Under the pieces are notes generated by a model. The model saw only the letters and a list, made by a program, of their open reading frames with translations. It was not told the origin of the DNA and searched no databases. DNA of 64,000 nt. Source: Candidatus Aminicenantes bacterium UBA6228. Lineage in GTDB: Bacteria; Acidobacteriota; Aminicenantia; Aminicenantales; Saccharicenantaceae. The DNA lies in assembly GCA_002441005.1 (NCBI GenBank), contig DJWO01000002.1, positions 70,784 through 134,783 of the forward strand, given 5' to 3'. Of this stretch, positions 3,542 to 58,692 are shown in pieces; positions within the stretch are counted from its first letter, which is position 1, and each line of letters begins with the position of its first letter. The translations under genes were made by a program, and so were the position numbers.

Positions 3542-4989
3542 TCGACCTCCTCCAGTAAAAATTTCTTTTTTCTTATATTGGCTGGCGGAAGACCCTGCTG
3601 GCCACGATATTTAGCCACAGTCCGGCGAGCGATCTGAACATTCTCCCTGGTTAATATAGCCACGATTTCCTCATCGCTCAAGGGATTGGTTTTATCTTCA
3701 TTCTGAACCAGCTTCCTGATTCTATCTTTGATTTTTAAGGAAGAAATTTCTTCCCCGTAGGCCCCGCTCAGCGACTTATGGAAGAAATATTTTAAAGGAA
3801 ACAACCCGAGAGGAGTCATCATATATTTGTTGGCTACCACCCGGCCAATGGTTGACTCATGCAGGCCAAGCTCCCGGCCGATCTCGATCAGAGTCATGGG
3901 CTTCAAGGCCTCGAGCCCATTCTCCAGAAATTCTTTTTGTTTTTTGACGATATAATCGGCTACCCGGTAGATGGTCCGGTTTCTTTGATTAATACTCTTG
4001 ATAAACCACAACGCTCTCTTCATCTTGTCTTTAATAAATCTGGCTGTCTCCTGATCAGCCTTGACTCCCGCCTGGGCTAATTGCCGGTAATAACGATTGA
4101 GCCGCAACCTGGGCAGGCCTTCTTCATTCAGGTAAATTTTCCATTCGCCGCGTTCTTTAACCACATAAATATCAGGGACGACATAGATGGTCCGGTCCTC
4201 ACTGTATTTTCGCCCGGGAGCCGGATCAAGGTTTTTAATCAGGTCAAGATGAAGACGCAATTCGGCCAGAGAAATATTAAGCTGGCTGGCCAGCTCCTGA
4301 TGAGCAGCCTTTTCCAGCAGGGGAAGATAATCAGCAATGATTCTCCTGGCCGTCTCATCCTGAAGGTTAAGCGAATCCATTTGAGCCAGCAACGCTTCTT
4401 TTAAAGTCAGGCTGCCGCAGCCAGGCGGATCAAACATTTTTATCTTTGACCGGACCTCTTCCACCAGGGCCAGATCCTCTGGCAGCCGGGAGGCTATTTC
4501 CTCCGGGCTCACGGTGAGATACCCGTCCTCATTGATATTACCGATAATATATTCAGCTACTTTTAGTTCACCTGGCTCAAAGAAAGTCAGCCCAGCCTGC
4601 CAGTTCAAATGATCCCAGAGAGACGGGCTCTCTGATACCTGATTTTCAAATCTTGGCTCATCCTGGCCGGTTTCATTTAAAGTTGGAATTGAGTCATCTA
4701 AATAATCTTCGAAACCAGCTGAAAAAATCACATCATCATAATTCTGGCCATCGCTGTCTGCCTGACCGGTTTCAGCGTCAGCTCCGCTTTCTTCCGGACT
4801 GGCCTCGCCGGCCGCCGTCTCCTCGCCTGACTCTCCCTCTATTTCCAGCAGCGGATTTTCAGATAATTCATCATAAACCACCTGCTGCAATTCAAGGTTG
4901 GTCAGCTGCAGCAGCTTAATGGCCTGTTGCAGGGCCGGCGCCAGGATCAGTTTCTGGGCCTGCTTTTGATTGAGCTTTTGCTTTATCAT
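3538..4989 (-). CDS. rpoN: RNA polymerase sigma-54 factor
   Basis: 483 aa with an acidic middle region, the C-terminal RpoN box ARRTVAKYR and an HTH. Confidence 0.95.
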   Translation of the reverse strand: MIKQKLNQKQAQKLILAPALQQAIKLLQLTNLELQQVVYDELSENPLLEIEGESGEETAAGEASPEESGADAETGQADSDGQNYDDVIFSAGFEDYLDDSIPTLNETGQDEPRFENQVSESPSLWDHLNWQAGLTFFEPGELKVAEYIIGNINEDGYLTVSPEEIASRLPEDLALVEEVRSKIKMFDPPGCGSLTLKEALLAQMDSLNLQDETARRIIADYLPLLEKAAHQELASQLNISLAELRLHLDLIKNLDPAPGRKYSEDRTIYVVPDIYVVKERGEWKIYLNEEGLPRLRLNRYYRQLAQAGVKADQETARFIKDKMKRALWFIKSINQRNRTIYRVADYIVKKQKEFLENGLEALKPMTLIEIGRELGLHESTIGRVVANKYMMTPLGLFPLKYFFHKSLSGAYGEEISSLKIKDRIRKLVQNEDKTNPLSDEEIVAILTRENVQIARRTVAKYRGQQGLPPANIRKKKFLLEEVE

Positions 4990-41400: not shown

Positions 41401-41436
41401 AAAAAAATAGGAAATATAGATTGTGTCCCCAGTTTT
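41401..41436 (+). repeat. GTGTCCCC-box repeat (F orientation) upstream of the sensor kinase
   Basis: AAAAAAATAGGAAATATAGATTGTGTCCCCAGTTTT is almost identical to the copy at 52254. Confidence 0.85.
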
Positions 41437-45987: not shown

Positions 45988-46623
45988 ATGAAAAAACATC
46001 AAAAGATTTTCATTTTCGCCATCGCCACTCTTGTCATCTTTATCTCGAGCCAGAGTTGCGCCACCAAAAAATTTGTCAGAACCGAAGTAGGAACAGTAGA
46101 TCAGCAGGTAAAAGATGTTAAGACAGCGGTTGATGAAAACACCAAAACCATCCAGGCCCATGAAGAAAAGCTGGCCAGCTTAGGGTCGCTTATCACCCAG
46201 CAGGGCTCGGAGCTAAAAAATGTGGAAACAAGCCTGGAAGAAGTCCGGAAAACTGCTCAAGGGAAACTAATTTTAAAGGAAGTCCTCAAGAACGACGAAG
46301 TTAAATTCGCCTTTGATAAGGCCGAGTTGACGGCTGAGGCTAAAGCCAGGCTGGATGAATTTGTCCAGAAACTTATCGAACTCGACCGCGGCCTGTATCT
46401 TGAAATTCAAGGGCATACCGACAATACCGGCCCGGATAGCTGGAATATGAGGCTGGGGAAGATGAGAGCAGAGGCAGTTAGAGATTATCTGTACAAGCAG
46501 CATCACCTGCCACTTCACCGGATGGAGGTCATCAGTTTAGGAAGCTCGGTGCCGGTAGCCGATAACAACAGCCGTGAGGGAAGAGCAGCCAACAGGCGGG
46601 TCGAAATCTTAGTCTATGAATAA
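45988..46623 (+). CDS. OmpA-family lipoprotein (coiled-coil + OmpA/MotB peptidoglycan-binding domain)
   Basis: Lipobox SQSC and a C-terminal OmpA-like domain (…NRRVEI). Confidence 0.8.
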   Translation: MKKHQKIFIFAIATLVIFISSQSCATKKFVRTEVGTVDQQVKDVKTAVDENTKTIQAHEEKLASLGSLITQQGSELKNVETSLEEVRKTAQGKLILKEVLKNDEVKFAFDKAELTAEAKARLDEFVQKLIELDRGLYLEIQGHTDNTGPDSWNMRLGKMRAEAVRDYLYKQHHLPLHRMEVISLGSSVPVADNNSREGRAANRRVEILVYE

Positions 46624-46653
46624 ATGGGGACACATTCTATATTTCCTATTTTT
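46622..46653 (-). repeat. GTGTCCCC-box repeat (R orientation, variant)
   Basis: AAATGGGGACACATTCTATATTTCCTATTTTT, located at the stop of the OmpA-family gene. Confidence 0.8.
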
Positions 46654-46699
46654 CGCCCCTTTTTTATGGCGACAAGATTGAGAAATAGAGAATACCTAT

Positions 46700-47551
46700 A
46701 TGAAGAGGGTACCTGGATCAGCCAATTTTCGCCGCCAGGCGATGGTGGCCCTCCGGAGTGTGGCGGCAGCGACGGCACTGCTTTACCTTGCTGGCTGTGC
46801 AAGCGGGCTACGAGCCCCAGGATCACTGCCGCCTCCTCCATCCTCTGCCTCACGGCCTGGTCCCTGGGAGACAAGCTACGCTGTCTATGACCCCGCCCTT
46901 TTTGGGCCAGAGTTGCCACTCACCGGACTTGTTGAACAACACCGGCTCAAACTCAAAAACGGCAAGCTAAAAAAGGCCAGGCTTCTCATCATCAAATCAC
47001 AGCGGCGGCTCGAACTCTGGGTTGGGAAAAAGATGGTTAAGGCCTATCGTATCCAACTCGGCCAGAATCCCGCCGGGCCGAAAAAGCGGCAGGGTGATTT
47101 GCGAACTCCTGAGGGCGAATACTTTATCTGCGAGCACCGGCCATCAACCTACCATCGCGGTCTGATGATTTCCTATCCAAATGTTCAGGATGCCAGGCGC
47201 GGACTGGAAGCGGGCTTAATCAGTCAGAAACAGTTCGACGAGATTAGAGCTGCCATCAAAGAGGGGAGATGCCCCCCACAGAACACCAAGCTCGGCGGAC
47301 TGATTTTGATTCACGGCCAGCTGCCCGAGTATACGGCAGATTTTGCCCGGAGCCAGAGGGCAAAACCAGGCTCGCGTCGGCCAGGACTTGAGCCCGGGGA
47401 TGCCAATCCCGCCGAGATTCGCGAATTTCATGATTGGACCAACGGCTGCATCGCCCTGTTCAATCCGGACATTCGCGAGCTCTATGAGTTTGTCCCGGAC
47501 GGAACCCCCGTGACCATTGTGGCTAACGGTCCAGTCACCGCCCCTCATTAA
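46700..47551 (+). CDS. L,D-transpeptidase (YkuD domain) lipoprotein
   Basis: Catalytic HGQ…TNGCIAL motif and a lipoprotein signal peptide. Confidence 0.8.
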   Translation: MKRVPGSANFRRQAMVALRSVAAATALLYLAGCASGLRAPGSLPPPPSSASRPGPWETSYAVYDPALFGPELPLTGLVEQHRLKLKNGKLKKARLLIIKSQRRLELWVGKKMVKAYRIQLGQNPAGPKKRQGDLRTPEGEYFICEHRPSTYHRGLMISYPNVQDARRGLEAGLISQKQFDEIRAAIKEGRCPPQNTKLGGLILIHGQLPEYTADFARSQRAKPGSRRPGLEPGDANPAEIREFHDWTNGCIALFNPDIRELYEFVPDGTPVTIVANGPVTAPH

Positions 47552-47750
47552 AATCGGGACACCCTAGATTTTCACTATTTTCTCCCTACAAATTTGTGCT
47601 AATTCGGGACACCTTAAATAATACGGACACAATCTATATTTCCTCTTTTTACCATCACCAGCATAGATGTACTGACTTAAAAGAAGCGAGGTAACGCAAA
47701 GCCAAAACCATCTTTAAAAAAAAGTGAATATCTAGGGTGTCCCCATTTTT
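47552..47750. mobile_element. MITE-like ~200-bp element with terminal inverted GTGTCCCC-box repeats (three R-type units on the left, one F-type on the right)
   Basis: The left end CGGGACACCCTAGATTTTCAC is the inverted match of the right end GTGAATATCTAGGGTGTCCCC. The element lies immediately after the L,D-transpeptidase stop. Confidence 0.7.
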
Positions 47751-47791
47751 CTTTTCTTGCAGGAAGTGGACATATTTGGTATATTATTGCC

Positions 47792-48412
47792 ATGAAATGG
47801 GCGCAGTTTCTCGACCTTGCTGGCAACGAGCCTATTTTCTCCTCTTCGCTTCTAAAGACAGAGGACATCAGTCCCGCCGAGGCTGGCAAGCAGCTCTCCC
47901 GTTGGGTCAAGTCTGGAAAGCTCATCCAGATTCGCCGCGGTCTTTACATGTTAGCTGAGCCATATATAAAAATCAGACCTCATCCCTTCTATGTCGCCAA
48001 CAAGCTCCAGAGAGGCTCTTATGTCAGTCTGCAGTCAGCCCTGGAATACTATGGCCTTATCCCGGAATATGTGCCGGCCGTTACGAGCGTTACTACCAGG
48101 CGCACCCAAACTTTCGCCACTCCCCTTGGCAATTACATTTTCCGCCATGTCAAAAAGGAGCTTTTCTTCGATTATGTTCAATTAGACATGGGAGGAGGGC
48201 AACTGGCTTTTGTGGCCACGCCAGAAAAGTCCCTCCTTGATCTTTTATATCTCACTCCCGGCTCTGATAATCCTTCTTATCTCCGCGAACTAAGACTTCA
48301 GAATCTCGAAAATCTGAATATTGAACGTTTCAAATCTCTGGCCAGCCAGACACGCAGCCGCAAGCTTATCCGAGCCGCAGGAATTCTTGGAGGTCTGTTA
48401 AGGAGGCTTTAA
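47792..48412 (+). CDS. abiEi: AbiEi-family type IV toxin-antitoxin antitoxin / transcriptional regulator
   Basis: 206 aa with an N-terminal wHTH and the typical C-terminal domain; paired with the downstream NTase. Confidence 0.75.
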   Translation: MKWAQFLDLAGNEPIFSSSLLKTEDISPAEAGKQLSRWVKSGKLIQIRRGLYMLAEPYIKIRPHPFYVANKLQRGSYVSLQSALEYYGLIPEYVPAVTSVTTRRTQTFATPLGNYIFRHVKKELFFDYVQLDMGGGQLAFVATPEKSLLDLLYLTPGSDNPSYLRELRLQNLENLNIERFKSLASQTRSRKLIRAAGILGGLLRRL

Positions 48413-48426
48413 AGGAAGGCCGAAAA

Positions 48427-49260
48427 ATGAAAGAGCAAATCAAACAGATCATTCAACAGGCATCGACTCCTCTTCAAGCCAGAAATCTTATGCGCGAGTA
48501 TCTTCAGGCTCGCCTTCTGGAGTTTATTCAAGAGCACGGGCTGTTCCGTACCTGGGTCTTCCAGGGGGGTACAGCCCTTAGATTTCTCTACGGCCTTCCC
48601 CGCTATTCTCAGGACCTGGATTTTTCTTTGGACCAGTCAGACGCTTCTTATGATTTAAACCAGGCTATTGCCCGGATCCGTCCGTGGTTTGAGGCTGAGG
48701 CTTATGAAGCCGATTTAATAATTAAAAACGAAAAAAATGTAAAGTCAGCCTTTGTCCGCTTCCCCTCGCTCCTTTTTGAACTCGGCCTTGCGCCGCACCG
48801 CTTTCAGGTTTTCTCGGTCAAAATCGAGCTCGACAGCCAACCTCCGGCTGGAGGTAGAACCGAGACCACCATTATCCGCCGCCCCGTCCTTTTGAACCTT
48901 CATCACTATGATCAGGCAACACTTTTCAGTGGCAAAGTGCATGCCTTACTTAGCAGAAATTATACCAAGGGGCGGGATCTATACGACTTCTTCTGGTATC
49001 TTTCCGACCCCTCCTGGCCGGCCCCGAATTTCATTTATCTTAATGAAGCTCTGAAGCAAACAGGCTGGAGCGGCCCTCAGCTTGACCAGAATAACTGGGC
49101 CGATCTTGTGGCCGAAAAGCTCGAGGCTGTTGACTGGAGGCAAGCCATTGAAGATGTCCGGCCTTTTTTAGAAAGAGCTTCCGATCTAAACCTTTTGACT
49201 AAAGGCAATGTCCTCAAGCTGCTGGGGACTCGTTCCAGGGAGGCGAGGAAACATGGCTGA
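48427..49260 (+). CDS. abiEii: AbiEii-family nucleotidyltransferase toxin (DUF1814)
   Basis: GGTALRFLYG…SQDLDF nucleotidyltransferase motif. Confidence 0.8.
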   Translation: MKEQIKQIIQQASTPLQARNLMREYLQARLLEFIQEHGLFRTWVFQGGTALRFLYGLPRYSQDLDFSLDQSDASYDLNQAIARIRPWFEAEAYEADLIIKNEKNVKSAFVRFPSLLFELGLAPHRFQVFSVKIELDSQPPAGGRTETTIIRRPVLLNLHHYDQATLFSGKVHALLSRNYTKGRDLYDFFWYLSDPSWPAPNFIYLNEALKQTGWSGPQLDQNNWADLVAEKLEAVDWRQAIEDVRPFLERASDLNLLTKGNVLKLLGTRSREARKHG

Positions 49261-49272
49261 ATCGGCTGGATA

Positions 49273-49464
49273 ATTCGGGACACCCTAGATTTTCACTATT
49301 TTCTCCATACAAATTCGGGACGCCTTAATAAAAAATATGGACACGATCTATATCTTCCGTATTTCCCCTCGGCAACAGAGATGTCCAGAGTATAGGCAAG
49401 GAAAATATAGGGAAGCAGAAAGCCTCCTTAGAAAAATAGGAAATATCTAGGGTGTCCCCATTTT
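49273..49464. mobile_element. Second MITE-like element with the same terminal inverted repeats
   Basis: The left-end 31 nt are identical to the 47552 element, and the right end is AAAATAGGAAATATCTAGGGTGTCCCCATTTT. Confidence 0.7.
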
Positions 49465-49520
49465 CCAAGCTGATTGAGTATTTAAATTGATAATGATTTC
49501 GACCGTCATCTATAATCAAA

Positions 49521-49778
49521 GTGATCATAAAAAGGCAAGAATCAAGAATAAGGGAAGGCAGGATTTTAATGGCTGATGAAATAATTTTTTTAGTTACAGA
49601 ATCATTGGAAGGTGGTTACGAAGCTAAAGCCTTAGGGTATCCCATCTTTACCCAGGCAGAAACCATAGAGGAACTTAAAGAGGCAGTTAAGGACGCCACC
49701 CGTTGCCATTTTGACCAGGCCGAAATGCCACGGATTATTAGATTCCACCAGGTCAAAGAAGAAGTCCTTTCATTATGA
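49521..49778 (+). CDS. hicB: HicB-like antitoxin
   Basis: 85-aa RNase H-like fold family (UPF0150), immediately upstream of hicA with a 4-bp overlap. Confidence 0.65.
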   Translation: MIIKRQESRIREGRILMADEIIFLVTESLEGGYEAKALGYPIFTQAETIEELKEAVKDATRCHFDQAEMPRIIRFHQVKEEVLSL

Positions 49779-50023
49779 AGCTACCCAGAGATATTCAGGG
49801 TATTGAACTGGCCAATTCACTTAGCAAATTTGGCTATAAAATTACCAGGCAAACAGAAAGCCACTTGCGTCTAACAAGAATCTCGGAGGATGTACATCAT
49901 ATTACAATCCCAAAGCATAAAACTCTGAAAATTGGGACGTTGAATAACATTCTTAATGATGTTGCCGGGCACCTGGGCAAGACAAAAGAAGAAATAGCTG
50001 AAGAACTCTGGGAAAAGAATTAG
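49775..50023 (+). CDS. hicA: HicA mRNA interferase toxin
   Basis: 82-aa YcfA/HicA-like protein with the conserved His. Confidence 0.75.
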   Translation: MKLPRDIQGIELANSLSKFGYKITRQTESHLRLTRISEDVHHITIPKHKTLKIGTLNNILNDVAGHLGKTKEEIAEELWEKN

Positions 50024-50098
50024 CTGGGAGCCACACCGTATTTATAAGGTGTATCACGTTTTTTGCTTTTCTATAGGCCAGCCGGCTGCTCTTGTCCC

Positions 50099-50133
50099 GA
50101 AAATAGGAAATATCTAGGGTGTCCCCATTTTTC
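50099..50133 (+). repeat. GTGTCCCC-box repeat (F orientation)
   Basis: CGAAAATAGGAAATATCTAGGGTGTCCCCATTTTT. Confidence 0.85.
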
Positions 50134-50153
50134 CAGTCTTCTCCCTATCTGGC

Positions 50154-50696
50154 CTACAACATTCTTTCTATTTCTTTAAGTACATTCTCAAAATGACAGA
50201 TATCATCTGCATCTCTCTGGGTTGAAACTTTTTTTCTCAGATAATCAATCCTTCTCTTTAAATCTGATAAAGATAAGCTCCTGGTCCTTATGGTTTCAAC
50301 TAACAGTTCCGGAGTCCTTTTTAATCTGTGTTCGGTTATTATTCTTCTCACTTCTCTCATAAAAGCCCTGTTATTCTCGTCTGATAATATGTAACAGTTA
50401 TGATAACGGGCATAAGCAAGCGAAGCTGCTTCCCCGATATCTAATGTTGTTGTCAGTTCAGAAAATAATTTTAGTTCTTCAATATCATTCAGAGACACCC
50501 TCCAGATTAGCCGGGCATTTATTATCTTCTGGAGGACATTTCTTTGCTTGTCCCATTTAATTTCGCTGGTAACCTCTTCAGTTATCAAAAAGACATAGCC
50601 GGATGCCTTAGGCACGACAGGCAGGACATCTAATTTGATCAAATCTATGACCGAATTCGCATCCATTACTATTGCGCCTCTTCCGCCTCCGGCCAA
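50154..50696 (-). CDS. DUF4411-like PIN-domain protein
   Basis: The probable true start is MDANSVIDL… with a PIN-like acidic-residue pattern. Transcribed immediately after the HTH-ImmA gene. Confidence 0.5.
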   Translation of the reverse strand: MAGGGRGAIVMDANSVIDLIKLDVLPVVPKASGYVFLITEEVTSEIKWDKQRNVLQKIINARLIWRVSLNDIEELKLFSELTTTLDIGEAASLAYARYHNCYILSDENNRAFMREVRRIITEHRLKRTPELLVETIRTRSLSLSDLKRRIDYLRKKVSTQRDADDICHFENVLKEIERML

Positions 50697-50713
50697 CTCT
50701 GCCTCCCACCTAT

Positions 50714-51970
50714 TTAAGTGGTGCGTCTGGCTTCAGAAATTGCACAAATGTCTTCATTTTGTAAGCCAGCCAGCTCGAGCAATTCAATCAGCTTATTCCT
50801 GCTGATGAGCCCTCCCCTTGCTGCTTCGACTGCCAGATAGAAAAGATGCTCGGTGGCGTTTTGGAAAATACCCCCTTTCTCACTATCCTTATCGGGGTCT
50901 TTCTTTCTCAGAATATCCTTAATTGCCTTACCGGCCGGGCTACTATCCTGCTCTAAAAGTAAATCCTTCTCTTTTCCACTTATAAGATTAAGGTTAAAGA
51001 GCCTCCAGATAGAAGCTTCGACGCTTACCCCAAAATATCTGGCCATTCGTACCACATGCGGATAGTTAATCGTGGATGACCTCGATTGTTTGGCCACAGC
51101 CTGCCTGGCTTCGTAGCTTACAACTTTATCTTTGACCATCAATGGCACCTGAATCCTTGACGGCATGGCCTTGCCGCACCTCTTCAAGAACTCTCTTACA
51201 GCGTTTTCTGGTATAAGAAAACAGGCAGCAAAAACATCTGCTCTTACTTCTCGAAGATCTTTCTTGCCTTCTTCCCGGGAAACTATGGCCGGCAAATCGT
51301 TCAGATCACAGAGTGCATGGCAGTATTCATGAATTACGGAATATCTCTGGCGAACAGGAGGTTCGGTACTATTAATTGCACAGACTGTAGCCTCCCCGGA
51401 GCGAAAAGTGAAACCGGAAAGCCCTGCCGGCAATTGCATCTCGAGGGTTAAAATCCCCTGGGTATCAAGCAAAGAAGCCGGATCGCCTACCGGAGCAACT
51501 CCCAGGCCGAGCCTGTTTCTTTCCTGAGCAGCAATCTCTTGTCCCTGCTCAACGGCATCCCACCTGGTGCGCATTTTTCGGTCGTATGCACAAAGAGGTC
51601 CAGAACTAAGGCGGTTAACGCCCAATTTATTTTCAAGGTCAAAGATAGCATTGATGATTTCCAGCCCTCTGTTCATGCCTTCCTGTATTTGATGGTCAGA
51701 ACAAACCTCCGGAACTGCCCTTAAAATGTAAGAGAGCCCCTCAGCCTCAAAGGCCTCTTCAAAAAAGCTGTGAATTGGACGCCCGTATAAGTGGGCTAAA
51801 GCCGCCAGCTCCAGACTTGAAACCTTTCTCTTGCCTGCTTCGATCTGGGCAATTACGGGCCGAACCAGGCCCAGGGCGCTTGCCACCTGTTCTTGAGTAA
51901 ATCGAGCTTTTTCCCTGGCTTCCTTTAGCCTTCGGGCCAGTTCTTCCTGGGTTATGGTCATTTTTGCCAC
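50714..51970 (-). CDS. HTH-XRE + ImmA/IrrE metallopeptidase fusion regulator
   Basis: N-terminal XRE HTH (FTQEQVASALGL) and a HEXXH zinc-peptidase motif (VIHEYCHAL) with a downstream Glu. Confidence 0.8.
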   Translation of the reverse strand: MAKMTITQEELARRLKEAREKARFTQEQVASALGLVRPVIAQIEAGKRKVSSLELAALAHLYGRPIHSFFEEAFEAEGLSYILRAVPEVCSDHQIQEGMNRGLEIINAIFDLENKLGVNRLSSGPLCAYDRKMRTRWDAVEQGQEIAAQERNRLGLGVAPVGDPASLLDTQGILTLEMQLPAGLSGFTFRSGEATVCAINSTEPPVRQRYSVIHEYCHALCDLNDLPAIVSREEGKKDLREVRADVFAACFLIPENAVREFLKRCGKAMPSRIQVPLMVKDKVVSYEARQAVAKQSRSSTINYPHVVRMARYFGVSVEASIWRLFNLNLISGKEKDLLLEQDSSPAGKAIKDILRKKDPDKDSEKGGIFQNATEHLFYLAVEAARGGLISRNKLIELLELAGLQNEDICAISEARRTT

Positions 51971-52253
51971 CTTAAATTAAGTAATTAAGCTAACAAGCTT
52001 CAGCCAGAGGCGATATTATCATTAATCATTAACTGAGCTCCCTTCGGATTGGGGTTCCGCCTCCTCCCTTTTAAAATATAGAAACTATTACATCATTTGT
52101 CAAGATATGGCTATTTATGTAATTAAATACTACGCCAACTAAAAGAAAGTCAGCTACATTTGGCGCGGCCTGAATCGGGCCAATTCAGCAGGAATAAGAT
52201 CCAACAAGATTAAGTTATATAATTTTTATCCGCCAGCCCCTTCGCCGCCAGAC

Positions 52254-52289
52254 AAAAAAATAGGAAATATAGAATGTGTCCCCATTTTT
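52254..52289 (+). repeat. GTGTCCCC-box repeat (F orientation)
   Basis: AAAAAAATAGGAAATATAGAATGTGTCCCCATTTTT. Confidence 0.85.
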
Positions 52290-52309
52290 GCCCTGATTTC
52301 TTGCCGATT

Positions 52310-52786
52310 TCACTTTTTAATTATGCCAAGCTCAGCTAAAAAAACCGCCAGATCTATCTCAACAAGGTTTTTAGCCTCGTCTGGAGGAAAATAATCAGAA
52401 GCAAGCCCATCAAGCCATTGAGGGCTCTTTCTTGATCCAATCCTGCAAAGAGTGAGATAACGTGCGGTCTCAGAAGCATCTCGTAGCTTCCTAAATTTTT
52501 TAAAAGCTTCTTCGCTAAGGTGATTATGGATTAATTTTTCCCGCCAGGCATGAGGAGACGTATTAAATTTGCCATCTCTACCGACGGGTATGCTTGTCTC
52601 TGTATGCTTCTCTCTCTTATCATATAGCCAGCACTCAAAATAATGAATCGCAGAATAAAATGAGGCAGTGATACCCCAATCATGGTACGGAGGTTCGTTT
52701 ACTAGTTTTTTTGCTAATTTTTTATTGTGTTCAGCTTGAGAAAGATGCACATGACGATCGGCCATGTTTATCTCGCAAAAATGCAC
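52310..52786 (-). CDS. Hypothetical protein with a HEPN-like Rx4-6H motif (REKLIH); third gene of a three-gene operon
   Basis: 158 aa in an AT-rich region. The Rx4H motif was seen by eye; I recognise no other family signature. Confidence 0.45.
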   Translation of the reverse strand: MHFCEINMADRHVHLSQAEHNKKLAKKLVNEPPYHDWGITASFYSAIHYFECWLYDKREKHTETSIPVGRDGKFNTSPHAWREKLIHNHLSEEAFKKFRKLRDASETARYLTLCRIGSRKSPQWLDGLASDYFPPDEAKNLVEIDLAVFLAELGIIKK

Positions 52787-53382
52787 TGCGCCTGGGGATG
52801 AATAAAATCTGTCTTGTCTGAAATAAATACCGGAGGATAAAAGAACTCAAAAATCAAAGAAGAATATATTTTTCTTATTTCATATTCAATATCTAAAAGC
52901 TGGTCCATTAAACTACCATCATACCGATCTGAAGTAATTAGAATATAAACCTGAATTTCTTCTCTAAATTTTTGAGCGTAAATAGATTTAACTTTTCTAA
53001 TCTTGGCATAATTCGCGGCAATTCTGAGAAGGGCAGCTTGCTCTAAATCTTCCTTCTCTAATTCCATAATATATGACATTAAACCAAGAATTGCCTCCAG
53101 ATTATCATAATAACTTCTAATCTCTTTTGTCCTAGTCTTAGATAGGGGGAAAATCGATGAGGCTATAAACACGCCAGGGTCTGTATAATCGCTCCTCGCC
53201 ACGATTTTCTCAAGCAGTCTCTCGAATTCTCTAAAAACGAATTCACGAAGGCTATATCTATATTCTTTATCTCGCCAGGGTATTGCATAGCTTTTTGTTT
53301 CCCCACCCGGGCAAAGAGTATTATAACTATTCCCTGGCCAAATTAAATCTGTTCCTGTATAAACAGTTTGTGCTGTATCCAA
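52768..53382 (-). CDS. Hypothetical protein (204 aa), second gene of the operon
   Basis: Long ORF in AT-rich DNA that overlaps its neighbours in an operon-like arrangement; no recognisable motif. Confidence 0.5.
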   Translation of the reverse strand: MDTAQTVYTGTDLIWPGNSYNTLCPGGETKSYAIPWRDKEYRYSLREFVFREFERLLEKIVARSDYTDPGVFIASSIFPLSKTRTKEIRSYYDNLEAILGLMSYIMELEKEDLEQAALLRIAANYAKIRKVKSIYAQKFREEIQVYILITSDRYDGSLMDQLLDIEYEIRKIYSSLIFEFFYPPVFISDKTDFIHPQAQCIFAR

Positions 53383-53384
53383 AG

Positions 53385-54092
53385 TTACTCTCCTAATAAA
53401 CTTAAATGCGACTCTAAAGTGCTTTTCATAATCCTAACGCTCTCTTCTAAAAAGGCCTGGATTGATTCTTTTTTAAAATCATAAGTATTTTCAGCTAAAG
53501 TATTTATGTCTAAAAGAAATGAGATTAATCTATCTTCATGAGGAAGAGATATATCATGGGCAGATCTAATCCGTGTCCACTTATTTGCCTCAAAATCAGA
53601 TAATGTTTCCCTATTCAAGCAATGGATCTCCAATTCACGAGGCCTGGCTATCGGCGCTTCTTTATTGATATATTTAGACAGAAGATGCTCTGCAGAAGAG
53701 CCGCTGTCTAACTCTATAACCCAATGAGTCACAATCGCCAGTCTCGTAACCTTAGCATTTAGCTCATTTTTTAGATATTGAAACAACGATAAAAAGTTTT
53801 CAAAAAGTTCTTCGAAGGAAGAAACATTACTGAATTCATCCTTTTTATATCTTAATATAAGATCAACTCTGTTTTTTGATATAGACAAATTGTATGTCTT
53901 ATCTTTTGAGCTCATTTGAATTCTTGGGATTTCAACAGGAGCATCGTCTGGTATAGGCAAGATTACAGGTTCACCATCCAGAACATTTAGGTATTTCTCC
54001 CTTATTGTAACTCCTGCCTTTAGCACATCAAAAATAACGATCCCCGGACTAAACAGTACTAGTTGAATGCTATCTACCCTTGTATTCATCAT
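53385..54092 (-). CDS. Hypothetical protein (235 aa), first gene of the operon
   Basis: Long ORF 2 bp upstream of the next gene; no recognisable motif. Confidence 0.5.
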   Translation of the reverse strand: MMNTRVDSIQLVLFSPGIVIFDVLKAGVTIREKYLNVLDGEPVILPIPDDAPVEIPRIQMSSKDKTYNLSISKNRVDLILRYKKDEFSNVSSFEELFENFLSLFQYLKNELNAKVTRLAIVTHWVIELDSGSSAEHLLSKYINKEAPIARPRELEIHCLNRETLSDFEANKWTRIRSAHDISLPHEDRLISFLLDINTLAENTYDFKKESIQAFLEESVRIMKSTLESHLSLLGE

Positions 54093-54465
54093 AAACTCCT
54101 GTTTTTATTATCATATACTCTACTTAAAAAATCAAAAAAGCAGATCATTTAGGAACCCGCTTAATGATAAGGCTACCCTCTTCTTAAATACGCATTCTGT
54201 CAAAGCCATCACTTCCCTTTTATTTTATAAGTATAACATATTGTTCTTCATTTTTAATAATTCTATTTTAATTTTAAGATAGTGTTTCCAAGCCATAAAG
54301 TTTGTCTCGCCCTGGGCATTAAGAATAAATAGCCCCGCCCAATTCTCCCGGCTCGACCAAAATATGGTTGATTTTCCCATAGACATGAAGCTTAACTAGG
54401 CAGTCATCCCTCAAGAAAAAGAAAGGTTGGTTGTGTCGCCTCTTACCATCTGTAAAAAAATTCAT

Positions 54466-54501
54466 TTGACAAAACGTTATGTGTGGTATATTCTTACCAC
54501 A
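54466..54501 (+). promoter_or_regulatory. Sigma-70-type promoter (TTGACA, -10 TATATT/TATTCT) with an overlapping inverted repeat TGTGGTA-tattct-TACCACA (candidate XRE operator)
   Basis: Read directly; lies 20-50 nt upstream of the HTH-XRE gene ATG at 54520. Confidence 0.45.
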
Positions 54502-54519
54502 TAAAGGAGAGAAAAGGAA

Positions 54520-54879
54520 ATGGTTGCCTTTGGTGAATTTATCAGGGAGCTCAGGTTAAAGGCGGGGCTGACGCTACGTCATTTTTGTCAGCTGACCGGC
54601 TTCGACCCGAGCAACTGGAGCAAAATTGAGCGGGGGCTATTATCGCCCCCAAAAAGCAAGGCAGTGCTGATAGAAATCGCGCGTGTCCTTAACCTGACCG
54701 AAGAATCTGAAGACTACAAGACCTTATTTGATCTGGCCGCCATCGGTCAGATCCCTGTAGATTTGGTTTCCACCCCCCAGGTGATGGAAAAGCTGCCAGT
54801 TTTCTTTAGAACGATAAGAGGCGAAAAGCCGACTCGCCAGGAACTTGAAGATTTGATTAAAATTCTCGGTGAAGAATAA
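54520..54879 (+). CDS. XRE-family HTH transcriptional regulator
   Basis: HTH (LTLRHFCQLTGFDPSNWSKIERG). Confidence 0.75.
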   Translation: MVAFGEFIRELRLKAGLTLRHFCQLTGFDPSNWSKIERGLLSPPKSKAVLIEIARVLNLTEESEDYKTLFDLAAIGQIPVDLVSTPQVMEKLPVFFRTIRGEKPTRQELEDLIKILGEE

Positions 54880-55512
54880 ATGTCCGCTTCCAAAAGACCC
54901 CCGGCCACCATTACTCCGCCCTGGCTAAGCTTTGACTATATAAGACAGCAAGCAGACAACTTCAGACAACAATACGTAAAACCTCCAGACCTTGTGCCTG
55001 TCCCCATGGAGGATGTAGTCGAGCTCGATTTGAAGTTTCAAATAATCCCAATAATTGGCTTACAGGACAGAATAGACGTCGATGGTTTTTTAACTAATAA
55101 TTTAAAAGCTATCTGTGTTGATTATAATGTATATACGGATGAACGCTGGTCGTCGCGCTTGCGATTCACGCTGGCTCACGAAGTCGGTCATCTTGTCCTG
55201 CATAAAGAACAAATACAACAATGCAGATTTAGAACCCCCGAAGATTGGATCCATTTCAGAGAAGACTTCACTGAAGATGATTTAAATTGGTTCGAAGCCC
55301 AAGCTTATGAATTTGCCGGAAGACTCCTCGTCCCAAAAGAAGAACTGGAACAGCAAATAAGATCACGTAGTGATGAGATAAGAACTTTTAAGGAACGTTT
55401 TCCGGACAGTCCTGATCTTAACGAGGCTATTTCGCGGGTCATTTGCGGCCATTTCGGTGTCTCAGATCAGGTAATTTGTAGAAGGATTGCAAAAGAGAAA
55501 ATCCGCTTATGA
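54880..55512 (+). CDS. ImmA/IrrE-family metallo-endopeptidase
   Basis: HEXXH motif (AHEVGHLVLH); start abuts the stop of the HTH gene. Confidence 0.75.
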   Translation: MSASKRPPATITPPWLSFDYIRQQADNFRQQYVKPPDLVPVPMEDVVELDLKFQIIPIIGLQDRIDVDGFLTNNLKAICVDYNVYTDERWSSRLRFTLAHEVGHLVLHKEQIQQCRFRTPEDWIHFREDFTEDDLNWFEAQAYEFAGRLLVPKEELEQQIRSRSDEIRTFKERFPDSPDLNEAISRVICGHFGVSDQVICRRIAKEKIRL

Positions 55513-55572
55513 TGATCTAAGGCCGCGGCTGTTGAGCTAATTCAATCTTACAAGTGAAAGAGAGGTAAGGGA

Positions 55573-56073
55573 ATGGCAGTTGAAATTATTAAAGCAGTGG
55601 GCGCATTTATCATAAGCCCTATAATATTCCTTTATGTTTCATTAAAAATAGCAAAATTTCATTTTGAAAAAGACATGAGAAAGCAATATCTCATTGCAAA
55701 GGATAAAACAGCCAACGAAATGCTGACTTCTATGACTGAAATGTTATTAGCCATGTGGGATGTTTATAATGCGACCAAGATGGACACGGATGATAAAAGA
55801 ATAAAGGATTTATCTTGTGAGAACGCCAGGGGTAGGTTCTGGTTTCACCTGAGACAGACTTATCTTCAACTGGCTCGGATGGGTCTATATCATGGGACTG
55901 AAATTGTTGAAGACATTGCCAAGCTACAAGACGAGTGGTCCGATAAAATAAATAATAATGATTTCAAGTTTTTAGATACATGGGAAGAATATCGGGTAAA
56001 CACGGTATTTCTTCTGCTGGAAAAACTTCACACAGAACTAAAGGACACTGTTTTCGGCAAAAAGCCCCTTTGA
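55573..56073 (+). CDS. Hypothetical membrane-anchored protein (166 aa)
   Basis: N-terminal TM segment and an AT-rich context. Confidence 0.4.
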   Translation: MAVEIIKAVGAFIISPIIFLYVSLKIAKFHFEKDMRKQYLIAKDKTANEMLTSMTEMLLAMWDVYNATKMDTDDKRIKDLSCENARGRFWFHLRQTYLQLARMGLYHGTEIVEDIAKLQDEWSDKINNNDFKFLDTWEEYRVNTVFLLLEKLHTELKDTVFGKKPL

Positions 56074-56159
56074 TTAAATTCTTGTACAAAATAGATGATA
56101 GCACTGTAGATATAGCGTTTTATGTCCAGACTTAAACCTCCCAGCATAATCCGATGATT

Positions 56160-56340
56160 TCGGCCACTGAATCCAGTCGAAATCCAATCGTGGCCGGCCG
56201 CCTTTCGGAGCGTAGCAACGCCGGGCCTAATTTTTTTATCCCAGCTGGCCAAGTTCCCGTCGAAATATCCACCTGAATTCAATTGGAATTGACGGCCGGA
56301 TTCCATTGGAATGGGTGGCCGGCTTCCCGTCGGGATACGC
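56160..56340. repeat. Iteron-like array of ~26-bp imperfect direct repeats (GGCCGGC-TTCCCGTCGRRAYAYCC)
   Basis: At least five units with variable 10-25-bp spacers; two more units lie at 56657-56706. Confidence 0.6.
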
Positions 56341-56363
56341 ATGGCTTTGTTAATCATTCCTAA

Positions 56364-56585
56364 CTGTTAATAGGCGCCTAGTATTACAATGTAGATCTGC
56401 ACACAGTTTTACGAGGCCGGCGGTAGTGGCTGGTAGGAGGGGGAGAGTCACATTTTACTTGGGCTCCGCACTGGAAGATACCAGGTGCCGAGAACCATTG
56501 AGAAGATCAGACGAAACCGATAGGCGGGCAACATTTTGAAGATTAAGGGATTCGGGCGGTTAATTTTAAATTGGTAAAGGACGGG
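56364..56585 (+). repeat. Conserved ~200-nt module (copy A) shared with 58335-58560; candidate structured ncRNA or recombination site
   Basis: A 75-nt block, TACTTGGGCTCCGCACTGGAAGATACCAGGTGCCGAGAACCATTGAG[A/G]AGATCAGACGAAACCGATAGGCGGG, is shared with a single A/G difference; the flanks are about 80% identical. Confidence 0.75.
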
Positions 56586-56735
56586 TTCCTTATCGCATCA
56601 CAGGCGAAAAAAGGAGGATATCTGGTGTGCCCCTTTTTTGGCCACCTATTCCAACTATCACCACGAAATTGGCCGCCTTCCAGTCGAAACACCCGGCCGG
56701 CTTGCATCGGAATACCGGAATACAGAAGCCACCAG

Positions 56736-56873
56736 AGAAAAAAGGAAATATAGACTGTGTCTCCCTTTTCAATCGATAAAAGGGAATAAATAGGGCCTAT
56801 TGATTTTCCTGGCTGATGCGTTTATGGCCCGTGCCCGAAAAAAATAGTGAATATCTAGGGTGTCCCGATTTTT
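56736..56873 (+). repeat. Pair of GTGTCCCC-box repeats (variant + canonical F) forming the right end of the composite element that starts near 56364
   Basis: AGAAAAAAGGAAATATAGACTGTGTCTCCCTTTTC … GAAAAAAATAGTGAATATCTAGGGTGTCCCGATTTTT. Confidence 0.8.
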
Positions 56874-56956
56874 CTGGGAGCAATGTCCCGAAAGGCGAGG
56901 GCATCAGCCCGAAGCCTATATGCTGTGTTATGCGCTGGTGCCGAGCATGTATTTCA

Positions 56957-57640
56957 TTAATGAGCATTCTTTTTACTCTCCATTAAGAACTCTTTAATGT
57001 CATTAATAAATTCATTGAGTTTCCCCTCTTTAGACAGATTATACACTCTTAGCCCAGTTCTTTGACTACTGATTAAAGATACAGGTGGCACGCTTAAACT
57101 CATACAAAGGCTATACCCCAATACGCTGGGATACCTATTTCTTATGTTATCCAAGATAGCTCTATCTTCGTCAAGCCAGTTTGTGCTTTGCCAAATCTTG
57201 CAACTTATGATTATTAGAGGATGGATCAAATTATTTTCTCGCTTACCTATAGCCAGGTCTACGGCTTTGTATTTTGGATATTTTTTAAATCCTCTATTTT
57301 CAAACATATAAAATTCTTCTGTTAAAATCTTTGCATTCCAGAATAGTTCGACTGCCTTTTCAGCTTCGCTTTCCTTGATTGCTTTTTTCAATATGTCAAA
57401 ACAAAACTCCTCAAAGGCAATTCCTCTAAAATTGTTGTAAGTGTTTTCACCCAACTTAGGTTTAATGTTGCCCTTTTCTTCCCAAGTGATCTTTAGGAAG
57501 TGTGATAACGATTTAATATCAAGTTTCTTTTTCCATTTTTTATAAAAAATGAGAAGTTCATTATATCTGCTATAGCCTTTATCTTTAAGTTCCTGCAAAT
57601 AGTCGGTAGTTTTCTTGATCCTTCCCATATTATTCACCAA
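56957..57640 (-). CDS. Hypothetical protein, possibly a PD-(D/E)xK-like nuclease
   Basis: 227 aa in AT-rich DNA. The pattern AVDLAIGKRENN…IIISCKIW resembles a D…(E)xK motif; weak support. Confidence 0.4.
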   Translation of the reverse strand: MVNNMGRIKKTTDYLQELKDKGYSRYNELLIFYKKWKKKLDIKSLSHFLKITWEEKGNIKPKLGENTYNNFRGIAFEEFCFDILKKAIKESEAEKAVELFWNAKILTEEFYMFENRGFKKYPKYKAVDLAIGKRENNLIHPLIIISCKIWQSTNWLDEDRAILDNIRNRYPSVLGYSLCMSLSVPPVSLISSQRTGLRVYNLSKEGKLNEFINDIKEFLMESKKNAH

Positions 57641-57776
57641 TAGTTAGCGTGGCATTTGCCTATAACTTAAAATAACCGAACTACTTCATTTATGCTCCCG
57701 GACCGACACATTTTGTGAAGTATTTCGTTTAGGCAAGATTCTAAGTGAAATCTCGAATTGTAACCTTTTCTTGTTA

Positions 57777-58337
57777 TCATTTCTTTCCAAAATCCAAAGA
57801 GCTTTTAATCCGTCCGATATCCTGCTGGCTGACGGGAGTACAAATTTCTGTAGTTTTCGAGTTTTTATGTCCAGGTAACTTTTGAACATACCATAAATCT
57901 GTAGTACCTTCTAAAAGATGAGTAGCAAAACTATGTCGCAAGGTGTAGACAGTAACATTTTTAGCAATACCCGCTTTTTGGCTGACAGCTTCCAGAGTCT
58001 TCTCAACTGTTCTTGCTGTTAAATGGCTATTTGGTTCTGATCCTATGAAAAGCCAGTTTTTAGGCTGATAGGCCTTCCAGTATTCTCGTAACACTCTTAG
58101 AGCAACTTCTGAAAGAACTTTATATCTTTCCTTTCGACCTTTTGCCGCCTTTATATAAATCATATTGCGTTTCGTATCAATATGTTCTGTAATTAATTTT
58201 ATCACCTCACTCACCGTTAATCCAGCAGAATATACCAGCATAAGAATTGCTTTATGCTTGATATTATTTACAGACTCAAATATGCCTATGACATCTTCAC
58301 GACTAAGAATAATGGAGAATTTTTTCTTGGTCAGCTG
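57777..58337 (-). pseudogene. 5'-truncated, catalytically degenerate tyrosine recombinase (phage-integrase family) remnant
   Basis: C-terminal catalytic-domain motifs are present (LMLVYSAGLTVSE, TLRHSFATHLL, GHKNSKTTEICTPV), but Arg-I is replaced by Thr, His-II by Tyr and the catalytic Tyr by Cys. The frame opens just after a TGA at 58338-58340 with no upstream start codon and no N-terminal core-binding domain. Confidence 0.7.
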
Positions 58338-58560
58338 TCAATAGGCGTATAGTATTGCGAGGTAGATCGGCACATAGTTTCACGAGGCCGAAGACACTGG
58401 TGGGGAGGATGGTGAGAGTCACATTTTACTTGGGCTCCGCACTGGAAGATACCAGGTGCCGAGAACCATTGAGGAGATCAGACGAAACCGATAGGCGGGG
58501 ATATTATTGCCGGAAAGGGATTCGGTTGGTTAATTTTAAAGTTGGTTAATTTTAAATTGA
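58335..58560 (+). repeat. Conserved ~200-nt module (copy B), abutting the recombinase truncation point
   Basis: See copy A; begins CTGTCAATAGGCG…. Confidence 0.75.
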
Positions 58561-58593
58561 AAAGTGGCAGGTTCTGCTATCGCTTCACGCGGA

Positions 58594-58692
58594 AACAAAT
58601 AGAATATATAGCGCCTCCCGATTTTCGGGCTGACGCCTGTATGGCCCGTGCCAGAAAAAAAATAGTGAATATATAGGGTGTCCCTATTTTTT
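58594..58692 (+). repeat. Pair of GTGTCCCC-box repeats (variant + canonical F) ending the copy-B composite element
   Basis: AAACAAATAGAATATATAGCGCCTCCCGATTTT … AGAAAAAAAATAGTGAATATATAGGGTGTCCCTATTTTTT. Confidence 0.8.

Follow-up and report, generated by a model that had tools for sequence, protein, structure and literature searches.

What does a three-gene operon encode when its proteins match no described family, and does the regulator pair beside it belong to the same system? The question is raised by three minus-strand genes, A, B and C, in the stretch of 64,000 nucleotides analysed here, which we call the window. An earlier note on this DNA had proposed that the trio is an undescribed abortive-infection or anti-phage system, switched by an adjacent ImmR/ImmA-type pair and ending in an RNase-like third protein. 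We followed up this proposal by analysing gene starts, homologues, structural models, genomic contexts and the boundaries of the locus.

Gene anatomy and co-inheritance of the trio

Gene A (53385..54092, minus strand) is an ORF of 235 aa, for which gene callers pick the second ATG, resulting in 234 aa. Gene B (52768..53382, minus strand, 204 aa) starts with a TTG located 2 nt past the stop of A, with AGGAG 7–11 nt 5' of this TTG, and the preferred start of gene C (52310..52765, minus strand, 151 aa) is an ATG located 2 nt past the stop of B. A longer C of 158 aa, which starts at a GTG, had been described previously, but this is simply the longest ORF; since all of the 66 aligned homologues begin with M-A-D/E at the ATG, the 151-aa form was preferred. 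The three tightly packed ORFs are therefore all present as described, with a shorter third protein. The mean pairwise identity in 28 non-redundant trios was 43% for A, 58% for C and 50% for the C-terminal domain of B, indicating that A, B and C are genuine genes and not chance ORFs. Upstream of A lies a 345-nt region (54093..54437, minus strand) that is absent from the sister genome L077. In this region, a promoter-like site, TTGATT-17-GATAAT, is placed directly ahead of the AGGAG and ATG of A (54135-54107, minus strand; 9 of 12 matches in a consensus scan), and the same scan showed no significant enrichment of promoter sites over the whole of 54093..54437 (13 sites vs 8.5 expected).

The earlier note had suggested looking for the trio in other genomes, and there the three genes were indeed found together. 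A-B-C occurred in the same order in 28 of the 29 metagenome loci that were found with C as the bait and had at least 1400 nt of upstream DNA, and they were tightly spaced in all of the eight distinct annotated contexts. The family is distributed sporadically across unrelated phyla of bacteria and archaea, with only 3 trio loci among 185,579 species genomes, and a search of IMG/VR did not find the trio. Thus, the trio is a conserved and co-inherited operon, rare and horizontally moving, which is carried by dozens of uncultured microbes.

Regarding known families, none of A, B and C gave a match above threshold in Pfam, NCBIfam, PHROGs or PADLOC. Against PADLOC-DB v2.0.0, A showed noise-level matches only (E = 0.005–0.013), B and C showed no match, and 141 remote relatives of C showed no consistent match; PDB sequence searches with the trio proteins returned only noise. 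The expectation that the trio lies outside characterised families was borne out for Pfam, NCBIfam and PADLOC, none of which has a family that takes in A, B or C.

Folds of A and B and the affinity of C

No signature had been recognised in the first two proteins, which is true for their sequences, but their folds are recognisable in structural models, TBP-like for A and MNT-like for B. The model of A (pLDDT 90) forms a TBP-like pseudo-dimer composed of two beta-alpha-beta-beta-beta-alpha repeats, and the top folds for this model were TBP and AdoMetDC. In one sheet of A, conserved residues (Arg, Asp, Glu, His and Asn) occur in alternation along the strands, and A has no DNA-binding HTH. In the model, this fold and conservation suggest a resemblance to a ligand-binding sheet, and A is predicted to be a sensor or ligand-binding component. 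A also gave a weak, almost end-to-end alignment with NCBIfam TIGR04255 (21.3 bits, E = 1.9e-4, for a curated cutoff of 30 bits), to which two of 30 A-family members were matched at E ≤ 0.1. Homology between A and TIGR04255 was left unconfirmed, with a score below this cutoff and an hhalign probability of 0.2% between the A family and two true TIGR04255 members. At locus L052, an ORF of 265 aa occupies the position of A and appeared A-like by eye, but was set aside at an hhalign probability of 0.45%.

The N-terminal half of B is hypervariable, with a mean identity of 15% vs 50% for the C-terminal domain. Since the model of whole B was poor (pLDDT 60, from an alignment of 8 sequences), only the C-terminal domain (approximately residues 110–204) was interpreted; its model has a minimal-nucleotidyltransferase (MNT, Pol-beta-like) fold and can be superposed on MntA as solved in HEPN-MNT complexes. 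An hhalign comparison between the B family and a canonical MNT sequence was negative, so that the MNT assignment is a structural one. Of 41 B sequences, one matched the GSX10DXD pattern. B of the window contains a 'GS', which is unconserved and lies within a helix, and the beta1 and beta2 strands of the model are connected by a 2-residue turn. On the modelled structure, the C-terminal domain of B is an MNT fold without the catalytic motif, and by analogy B is predicted to be an antitoxin or adaptor.

C has 90 homologues and a wider family of 2,034 representatives at E ≤ 1e-3; one relative, P0124, bears the JGI label 'UPF0332'. The window C had no Pfam match above threshold, and a match to YafO_toxin (E = 0.007–0.009, below cutoff) was taken as noise. 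Weak matches to PF05168 were obtained with 8 of the 66 close and 15 of the 141 remote relatives of C (best E = 1.8e-6). PDB sequence profile searches with C found no HEPN, and hhalign comparisons of the C family with HEPN_SAV_6107-like and HepT-like proteins from fetched loci were negative. The PF05168 matches, recurrent and sub-threshold, hint at an affinity of C to the HEPN superfamily, and by its sequence C is predicted to be the effector, a small HEPN-superfamily-like protein. Invariant residues in the 66 aligned C sequences were Q10, H13, N14, D29, W30, H41, E44, H54, H72, W74, R75, S98, R102 and Y103, which include an H72-x-x-R75 arrangement and the R102-Y103 pair (66 of 66; in the 141 remote relatives, R in 137 and Y in 135). 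The HEPN likeness of C had originally been put down to an R-x4-H motif, WREKLIH; this motif is not kept, as H80 is His in 8 of the 66 close relatives and neither of the invariant residues R75 and R102 is followed, 4–6 residues on, by a conserved His, whereas the likeness itself persists as the weak PF05168 affinity. In distant relatives of C, a 140–210-aa gene lies directly upstream and A is absent. These upstream partners appeared B-like by eye, but their hhalign probabilities were at most 4%, and for this reason the B-C pairing is not claimed past the trio clade.

One of the closest known systems is HepT/MntA (HEPN/MNT, type VII toxin-antitoxin), above all its class II pairs. In HepT/MntA, a toxin with a HEPN domain (Pfam clan CL0291: PF01934, PF08780 or PF05168) arrests growth and is neutralised by its cognate antitoxin. 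Class I HEPN toxins carry an RX4HXY / Rx4-6H RNase motif, and class II (PF05168/PF01909) toxins are devoid of RX4H, retain a conserved Tyr and are encoded downstream of the MNT gene (PMC7641770). The same order is seen in all trio loci, where the MNT-fold gene B lies directly upstream of the HEPN-like C with 2 nt between stop and ATG, and C is likewise without RX4H and with a conserved Tyr, which may be the equivalent one. Unlike MntA, B is devoid of GSX10DXD and of the beta1-helix-beta2 nucleotide loop, and hence AMPylation by B is not expected. Further differences are the extra, hypervariable N-terminal half of B, the scores of C, which fall short of every Pfam HEPN threshold, and the obligatory third conserved gene A that is added in the trio clade. 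Because GSX10DXD is absent in B and Rx4-6H in C, an antitoxin role for B and an RNase role for C are extrapolated.

A second likeness concerns A. RnlA has the arrangement TBP1-TBP2-HEPN (PMC8266594), and other RNase LS proteins have N-terminal TBP-like domains (PMC3710099). RnlA/LsoA-RnlB (RNase LS, an anti-phage toxin-antitoxin) and the trio both comprise two TBP-like repeats, a HEPN or HEPN-like module and a small antitoxin or putative antitoxin; however, RnlA/LsoA is a single polypeptide of TBP-like and HEPN parts with Rx4-6H and an RnlB-type antitoxin, which the trio is not.

Cassette boundaries and the HTH/M78 pair

At the DNA level, synteny between the window and the sister genome L077 ends at position 52289 and picks up again at 54438, which delimits an exchangeable cassette of 2.15 kb (52290..54437, minus strand) consisting of the trio and its own 345-nt upstream region. 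The GC content of 52290-54437 is 0.366 compared to 0.471 for the whole window and 0.44–0.46 for the flanks, in agreement with the AT-richness that had been pointed out for the trio DNA. The cassette is self-contained and horizontally exchanged, its mobility being supported by the low GC and the exact synteny breaks. The same regulator-flanked slot in sister genomes holds a different three-gene operon, led by a bona fide TIGR04255 protein (257-141-173 aa).

The GTGTCCCC octamer occurs 7 times vs 0.88 expected, and belongs to a longer repeat of 32 nt. The window contains 12 copies of this longer repeat, of which 11 are inside 46.6–58.7 kb. One copy, AAAATAGGAAATATAGAATGTGTCCCCATTTT (52257..52288, plus strand), lies at the C-side junction of the cassette and belongs to the conserved flank, the synteny break being at 52289/52290. 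The A side of the trio has no clear copy of the 32-nt repeat. The repeat that was said to bound the trio therefore exists, but bounds it on the C side only. The alternative cassette of L077 is flanked by direct copies of the 32-nt repeat, one at either end (3896-3927 and 5863-5894). The variable region around the trio is rich in toxin-antitoxin and Abi genes (AbiEi/AbiEii and HicA), and no tRNA genes or Rfam families were found in or near the island. AbiE, HicAB and an HTH with an ImmA-type M78 protease are present among the neighbours as previously listed, but the neighbouring 180-aa protein is DUF3368/PIN-like, not DUF4411.

The HTH and M78 genes deserve separate consideration, as they had been taken for the switch of the operon. 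This block (54520..55512, plus strand), identified by Pfam and PADLOC matches as an XRE/CapH-like HTH and an ImmA/CapP-like Peptidase_M78, lies outside the cassette. The HTH gene (Pfam HTH_31) is divergent from the trio at a distance of 427 nt and is followed by the Peptidase_M78 gene, whose product matches PADLOC capP (E = 1.2e-13), the HTH weakly matching capH (E = 4.8e-5). This arrangement would suit a defence operon turned on by the adjacent CapH/CapP-like or ImmR/ImmA pair, as would the sister genomes, in which the block (92% and 83% amino-acid identity) stands beside the other three-gene operon, which is placed and oriented there as the trio is here, and fits a resident regulator of inserted cassettes. 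However, homologues of the window HTH or M78 protein were found in none of the 67 related loci, and an M78 protease adjoined the trio in none of the 8 other annotated contexts, so that a similar HTH and M78 pair is next to the trio here and absent from all other trio loci. In addition, the synteny break at 54437/54438 leaves the HTH promoter (54466-54494, plus strand, by promoter scan) in the conserved flank, approximately 375 nt from the start of A, together with the only palindrome seen, a 7-bp inverted repeat (54482-54488 / 54496-54502) spanning the -10 of this promoter; the whole of 54466-54502 is thus outside the cassette, and the trio carries an upstream region of its own. The gene downstream of M78 varies as well (166 aa here vs 274 aa in L077), so that the pair may instead act in this other direction. 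The XRE/ImmA link is confined to this genome, control by such a switch could not be upheld as a feature of the trio system, and we give little credence to a model in which the pair turns on the trio.

Candidate mechanism and genomic contexts

Our leading explanation, to which we assign slightly short of an even chance, is that the trio serves as a toxin-antitoxin or abortive-infection module of a strongly derived, HEPN/MNT-like kind, combined with a TBP-fold sensor. C would be an effector of the PF05168 ('class II') kind that binds or cleaves RNA via a non-canonical site, keeping the invariant R102-Y103 and a dense invariant polar set (Q10, H13, N14, D29, H41, H72 and R75), and may be toxic. 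B, translationally coupled to C, would neutralise it by binding and not by AMPylation, as the MNT domain of B has lost both the Gly-Ser loop and the DxD carboxylates, and the hypervariable N-terminal half of B may be a specificity, sensor or lability region. A would be a regulatory subunit, or one that senses a ligand or nucleic acid, and would set the timing of C release by B; the module may have an anti-phage effect. It is quite improbable, in our judgement, that A acts as an enzyme, in which case its sheet would be of the guanido-kinase / glutamine-synthetase-like fold and A a small ATP-using kinase or ligase that modifies B or C, for example at Tyr103, in replacement of the dead-MNT chemistry.

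The genomic contexts of the trio bear on whether such a module would serve in conflict. In three lineages or more, the trio is found inside or beside operons with DUF499/DUF1156/SNF2 (Hma / BREX-related; PMC12839542), and in further contexts AbiEii is nearby, an integrase is adjacent, or MNT/HepT pairs and transposases are present. A location among defence and toxin-antitoxin genes, as the earlier note had anticipated, is thus seen elsewhere. One locus lies directly 3' of an ATP synthase operon in ordinary housekeeping surroundings, with no defence genes near. A plain addiction-type toxin-antitoxin (three-component, type II/VII-like), in which A is a transcriptional or accessory regulator, would stabilise its carrier DNA and give no phage defence. 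The adjoining integrase and transposases, the sporadic, cross-domain spread over so few loci, the presence of HicAB and AbiE in the same cassette array and the compact, translationally coupled order of an MNT-fold gene followed by a HEPN-like gene would all be accounted for in this way. We nevertheless regard it as rather unlikely, since the repeated embedding in Hma/BREX-related defence operons, the hypervariability of the N-terminal half of B, as under arms-race selection, and the ligand-binding-like sheet of A in place of a DNA-binding HTH are suggestive of more than addiction. Alternatively, the trio might serve physiology and not conflict, as an accessory complex that handles RNA or nucleotides and whose neighbours are coincidental, to which the locus after the ATP synthase operon and the lack of an intact toxin motif would correspond. 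The extremely patchy spread over unrelated phyla and archaea, the foreign GC of the segment, its cassette-like exchange for an unrelated operon, and the recurrent defence, toxin-antitoxin and mobile-element neighbours make this highly improbable.

HEPN/MNT is regarded as the most abundant type of toxin-antitoxin, and by the accepted mechanism its toxin is neutralised when the MNT antitoxin AMPylates it. If the trio is a derived HEPN/MNT-like module, its clade has kept both folds (a predicted one in the case of C) and the gene order and lost both catalytic signatures; a TBP-fold partner has become obligatory, and the MNT-like protein has acquired a hypervariable region. Such a module, if functional, would represent a different mode of HEPN effector control, and would open a first route to the function of the A/TIGR04255-like proteins, which stand at the head of small operons in hot spots of prophages and defence genes. 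The sister genomes, in which this cassette is exactly exchanged, amount to a natural experiment with a clean boundary (52290-54437).

A broader proposal, which we consider tentative and somewhat doubtful, is that A and, more distantly, TIGR04255 form an unrecognised superfamily of TBP-fold sensors heading modular conflict systems of two or three genes, the effectors of which are interchangeable. In this lineage, such cassettes would be swapped at the 32-nt-repeat hot spot, and the HEPN/MNT pair would be governed by protein binding and an external sensor, not by AMPylation. Bona fide TIGR04255 members also head three-gene operons of similar sizes, one of which lies between lysis and terminase genes in a Pantoea prophage (266-189-149 aa), and their partner proteins are unrelated to B and C. 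The partners seen with A-like or TIGR04255 proteins were the dead-MNT/HEPN-like pair, plasmid 2-TM proteins, and unrelated proteins in the prophage moron site and in the sister genomes. As for the plasmids, A-like proteins (hhalign probability 97.3%, E = 1.8e-11) precede the 2-TM proteins on 3–4-kb enterobacterial plasmids, which fits a sensor with swappable effectors.

Anatomy, boundaries and distribution of the cassette

All three minus-strand open reading frames described in the earlier note are present. Gene A (53385..54092, minus strand) encodes 235 aa, or 234 aa from the second ATG used by gene callers in public assemblies. Gene B (52768..53382, minus strand; 204 aa) starts with TTG 2 nt past the A stop codon, with AGGAG 7–11 nt upstream, and gene C (52310..52765, minus strand) starts with ATG 2 nt past the B stop. 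Since all aligned homologues begin at the same Met, the start of C was assigned to the ATG at 52765; C is thus best read as a protein of 151 aa, the 158-aa GTG version being merely the longest possible ORF. The five genes at the locus are annotated as hypothetical proteins (DCW97_07200-07220), and A, B and C are all missing from Pfam, PADLOC and, above its cutoff, NCBIfam. The AT-richness also held, with a GC content of 0.366 at 52290-54437 versus 0.471 for the window and 0.44–0.46 for the immediate flanks.

Sister Saccharicenans genomes carry the same flanks (amino acid identity of 82%, 92% and 83% for the fused HTH-M78 gene, the HTH and the M78 protein, respectively), between which lies a different three-gene operon encoding 257, 141 and 173 aa, headed by a genuine TIGR04255 gene (149.5 bits). 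DNA synteny with the sister genome breaks at 52289/52290 and 54437/54438; therefore, the exchangeable unit is 52290-54437, comprising the trio together with an upstream region of its own (345 nt), in which a promoter-like site is found (54135-54107, minus strand).

Control of the trio by an ImmR/ImmA-type switch had been proposed from the neighbouring regulators. The analysis confirmed the HTH protein (Pfam HTH_31; weak match to PADLOC capH) and the Peptidase_M78 protein (PADLOC capP, E 1.2e-13) but places both outside the system: phmmer (E<0.01) detected no homologue of either one across 67 related loci, and in none of eight other annotated contexts is the trio adjoined by an M78 gene. The HTH promoter (54466-54494, plus strand), with a 7-bp inverted repeat across its −10, is located outside the cassette in the conserved flank, approximately 375 nt from the A start, and we consider such control improbable. 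The HTH and M78 block (54438-55512) shows 86% DNA identity between genomes, and the co-directional gene after M78 differs (166 aa here, 55573-56073, versus 274 aa in the sister genomes; the stretch compared is 6001-7836 of the sister-genome locus L077). Since both the cassette and the gene past M78 vary whereas the block is conserved, the regulator pair is a conserved anchor with a variable slot on either side. It could influence whatever adjoins it, with no specific tie to the trio.

Database searches returned 29, 7 and 90 relatives of A, B and C, respectively, every one derived from metagenomes or MAGs, and no Pfam domain was found in any of them. The A-B-C order and tight spacing recurred in every annotated context fetched (a Nitrospirota MAG, several ENA, Logan and JGI contigs, and one further MAG). 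An independent scan of metagenome contigs with C as bait gave 55 loci; 29 of these combine a strong C with 1400 nt or more of upstream DNA, and in 28 of the 29 both A and B lie upstream. Co-occurrence of the trio in other genomes is thus borne out, and the three genes are a conserved unit. In the exception, database locus L052, B is present and the A position is taken by a 265-aa ORF, which was rejected as A, its relatedness to A being undetectable. The family is rare: GTDB searched with one genome per species gave only three loci (a MAG, a Desulfobacteraceae MAG and an Aerophobetes MAG), and no trio was found in IMG/VR. It nonetheless ranges over bacterial phyla and archaea (for instance, an Aenigmatarchaeota C homologue). 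Among 28 non-redundant trios, mean pairwise identity was 43% for A, 58% for C and 50% for the C-terminal domain of B, versus only 15% for the N-terminal part of B; the length of B as a whole varies from approximately 140 to 330 aa.

Proteins C and B compared with HEPN/MNT modules

The C family comprises 2,034 representatives at E<=1e-3, mostly of 130–145 aa. Matches to Pfam HEPN PF05168 were weak but recurrent (8/66 close and 15/141 remote relatives, best E 1.8e-6), and one member is labelled UPF0332 by JGI. The HEPN-like R-x4-H motif (WREKLIH) seen in C by the earlier note turned out to be no family feature: R75 is invariant, but His occupies position 80 in only 8 of 66 sequences, and no conserved His follows R75 or R102 by 4–6 residues. 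The conserved residues are Q10, H13, N14, D29, W30, H41, E44, H54, H72, W74, R75, S98, R102 and Y103. 'Class II' HEPN/MNT modules (PF05168/PF01909) lack RX4H and keep a conserved Tyr (PMC7641770), a description that the invariant R102-Y103 of C fits.

The model of B, from an alignment of eight sequences, was poor overall (pLDDT 60); residues ~110–204, however, were well predicted (pLDDT 71–92) as alpha-beta-beta-alpha-beta-beta, and in this model the C-terminal domain has the MNT fold. The defining MNT motif GSX10DXD (PMC7641770) is absent from B, with 1 of 41 sequences matching; the 'GS' of the window B is unconserved and inside a helix, and at the modelled beta1-beta2 junction a two-residue turn replaces the Gly-Ser loop and helix.

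The analysis demonstrates the gene anatomy, the joint inheritance, the modelled folds of A and of the C-terminal domain of B, the missing motifs, and the limits and surroundings of the cassette. The best-supported reading, which we hold tentatively, is a derived module of the HEPN/MNT type that includes a third component. C would be the effector, with a HEPN fold and toxicity that we infer, and the MNT-fold domain of B would neutralise C by binding, its nucleotidyl-transfer chemistry lost. The variable half of B may determine specificity or lability, and A may act as a sensor or regulator. A plain addiction module is a rather unlikely alternative, and any phage phenotype of the trio is presumptive. 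Unlike HepT/MntA, the trio lacks both catalytic motifs tested and adds an obligatory gene of predicted TBP fold. No account of such a trio turned up in keyword literature searches. Its core is recognisably HEPN/MNT-like, however, so the trio is not categorically new. With the exact cassette boundaries now known, the trio is a solid candidate worth cloning, its function being a prediction.

Distant C relatives (24–34% identity) lack A and always have a 140–210-aa gene directly upstream, often overlapping (L064 4456-5369, L065 2213-3245, L066 4505-5462, L070 3604-4417, L085 5449-6363 and L086 5535-6402, all fetched database loci). Relatedness of these partners to B was undetectable; a 'Y(Y)H-VDIVA-AY--G--DGK' motif is common to several of them, which seem to constitute a separate family.

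Protein A and its relatives

The AlphaFold2 model of A, a confident one (pLDDT 90.1, pTM 0.87), consists of two beta-alpha-beta-beta-beta-alpha repeats. Because TATA-box-binding proteins ranked first in Foldseek against PDB (prob 0.97–1.0), followed by AdoMetDC, the modelled A is described as a TBP-like pseudo-dimer built around a single large antiparallel sheet. The invariant or near-invariant residues R57, R75, D77, R117, E127, E155, H157, N170, W172, R174, D195 and N197 lie on or beside strands, and their alternation suggests one conserved polar face. That A is a modifying enzyme seems very unlikely. TBP-like repeats are combined with a HEPN nuclease in RnlA/LsoA (PMC8266594, PMC3710099); since RnlA was not found among the best structural matches of A, this likeness is an architectural analogy only.

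The sole sequence lead for A was a nearly full-length match to NCBIfam TIGR04255, which at 21.3 bits stays below the cutoff of 30; 2 of 30 members gave such a hit. A full-text literature search for 'TIGR04255' returned no paper. A true TIGR04255 gene heads a 266-189-149-aa operon on the Pantoea sp. Lij88 plasmid NZ_CP118267.1 (locus L087, 4983-6831), within a prophage between holin/lysozyme/DUF2570 lysis genes and the small terminase, a site typical of morons or defence genes; the two proteins encoded with it have no relation to B and C.

A-like proteins also occur on enterobacterial plasmids of 3–4 kb (hhalign prob 97.3%, E 1.8e-11, 178 columns), each gene being directly followed by one whose small product has two transmembrane helices predicted at its C-terminus. 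In CP134916.1 (L068, 988-2045) and Rahnella pHW42 (NC_019203.1; L069, 70-1241), the A-like gene encodes 225 aa. The partner gene (127–163 aa) overlaps or abuts it, both being annotated only as hypothetical, and the pair could be a sensor with a membrane effector, or an exclusion module.

Genomic contexts and the repeat array

In at least three lineages, the trio lies inside or beside operons of DUF499 ATPase, DUF1156 methyltransferase and SNF2 helicase. These are 'Hma' or BREX-related systems, which are known with auxiliary HEPN, MNT and other effectors (PMC12839542). In four loci of a Desulfobacteraceae-type lineage (L006, L007, L011 and L031; for instance, L006 1858-12151), the trio is inserted within a co-directional operon, with a DUF499-like ATPase (869 aa) and a 329-aa protein upstream and DUF1156 methyltransferase, DUF8076 and SNF2 helicase downstream; here C bears a C-terminal extension of approximately 65 aa, giving 216 aa. 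Further trio loci were found near an AbiEii gene, directly past an integrase, and among MNT/HepT pairs and transposases. One simply follows an ATP synthase operon; a non-conflict function is the least probable of the readings considered.

The 'GTGTCCCC box' said to bound the trio is over-represented (7 copies versus 0.88 expected), but it bounds the C end only, with no clear copy on the A side. This box forms the core of a 32-nt repeat (consensus AAAATAGGAAATATCTAGGGTGTCCCCATTTT), and one copy of the repeat (52257-52288) abuts the C end. Copies lie at 46621, 47550, 47618, 47718, 49271, 49433, 50100, 52257, 56738, 56841 and 58659, with one more at 41404, and are concentrated in a 12-kb stretch (46621-58690) in both orientations; some are inverted arms ~130 nt apart that form a long ssDNA hairpin on folding (z −5.3). 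Copies are found where synteny with sister genomes breaks: the HicAB segment (49269-50119) has an MNT and HEPN_SAV_6107 pair in its place there, and the TIGR04255 operon replacing the trio is flanked on both sides by a direct copy (L077 3896-3927 and 5863-5894). The stretch has the look of an array in which TA and defence modules form cassettes delimited by the repeat. It recalls an integron, although it lacks attC-type cores, and the repeat array gave no Rfam match.

A neighbour previously called DUF4411 is DUF3368 by record (PIN-like; PADLOC PDC-S70, E 4e-8). This gene (50154-50696, minus strand) and its partner (50714-51970, minus strand), a fused HTH-Peptidase_M78 protein matching PADLOC RmrA (E about 5e-21), are a candidate two-gene defence or TA module. 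Direct repeats of 165 nt with 88% identity (56364-56528 and 58335-58499) bracket an unannotated 227-aa ORF (56957-57640, minus strand) and a 154-aa tyrosine recombinase fragment (57777-58241, minus strand; assigned through Pfam Phage_integrase in database locus L071), which may be a remnant of the recombinase that serviced the cassette array.
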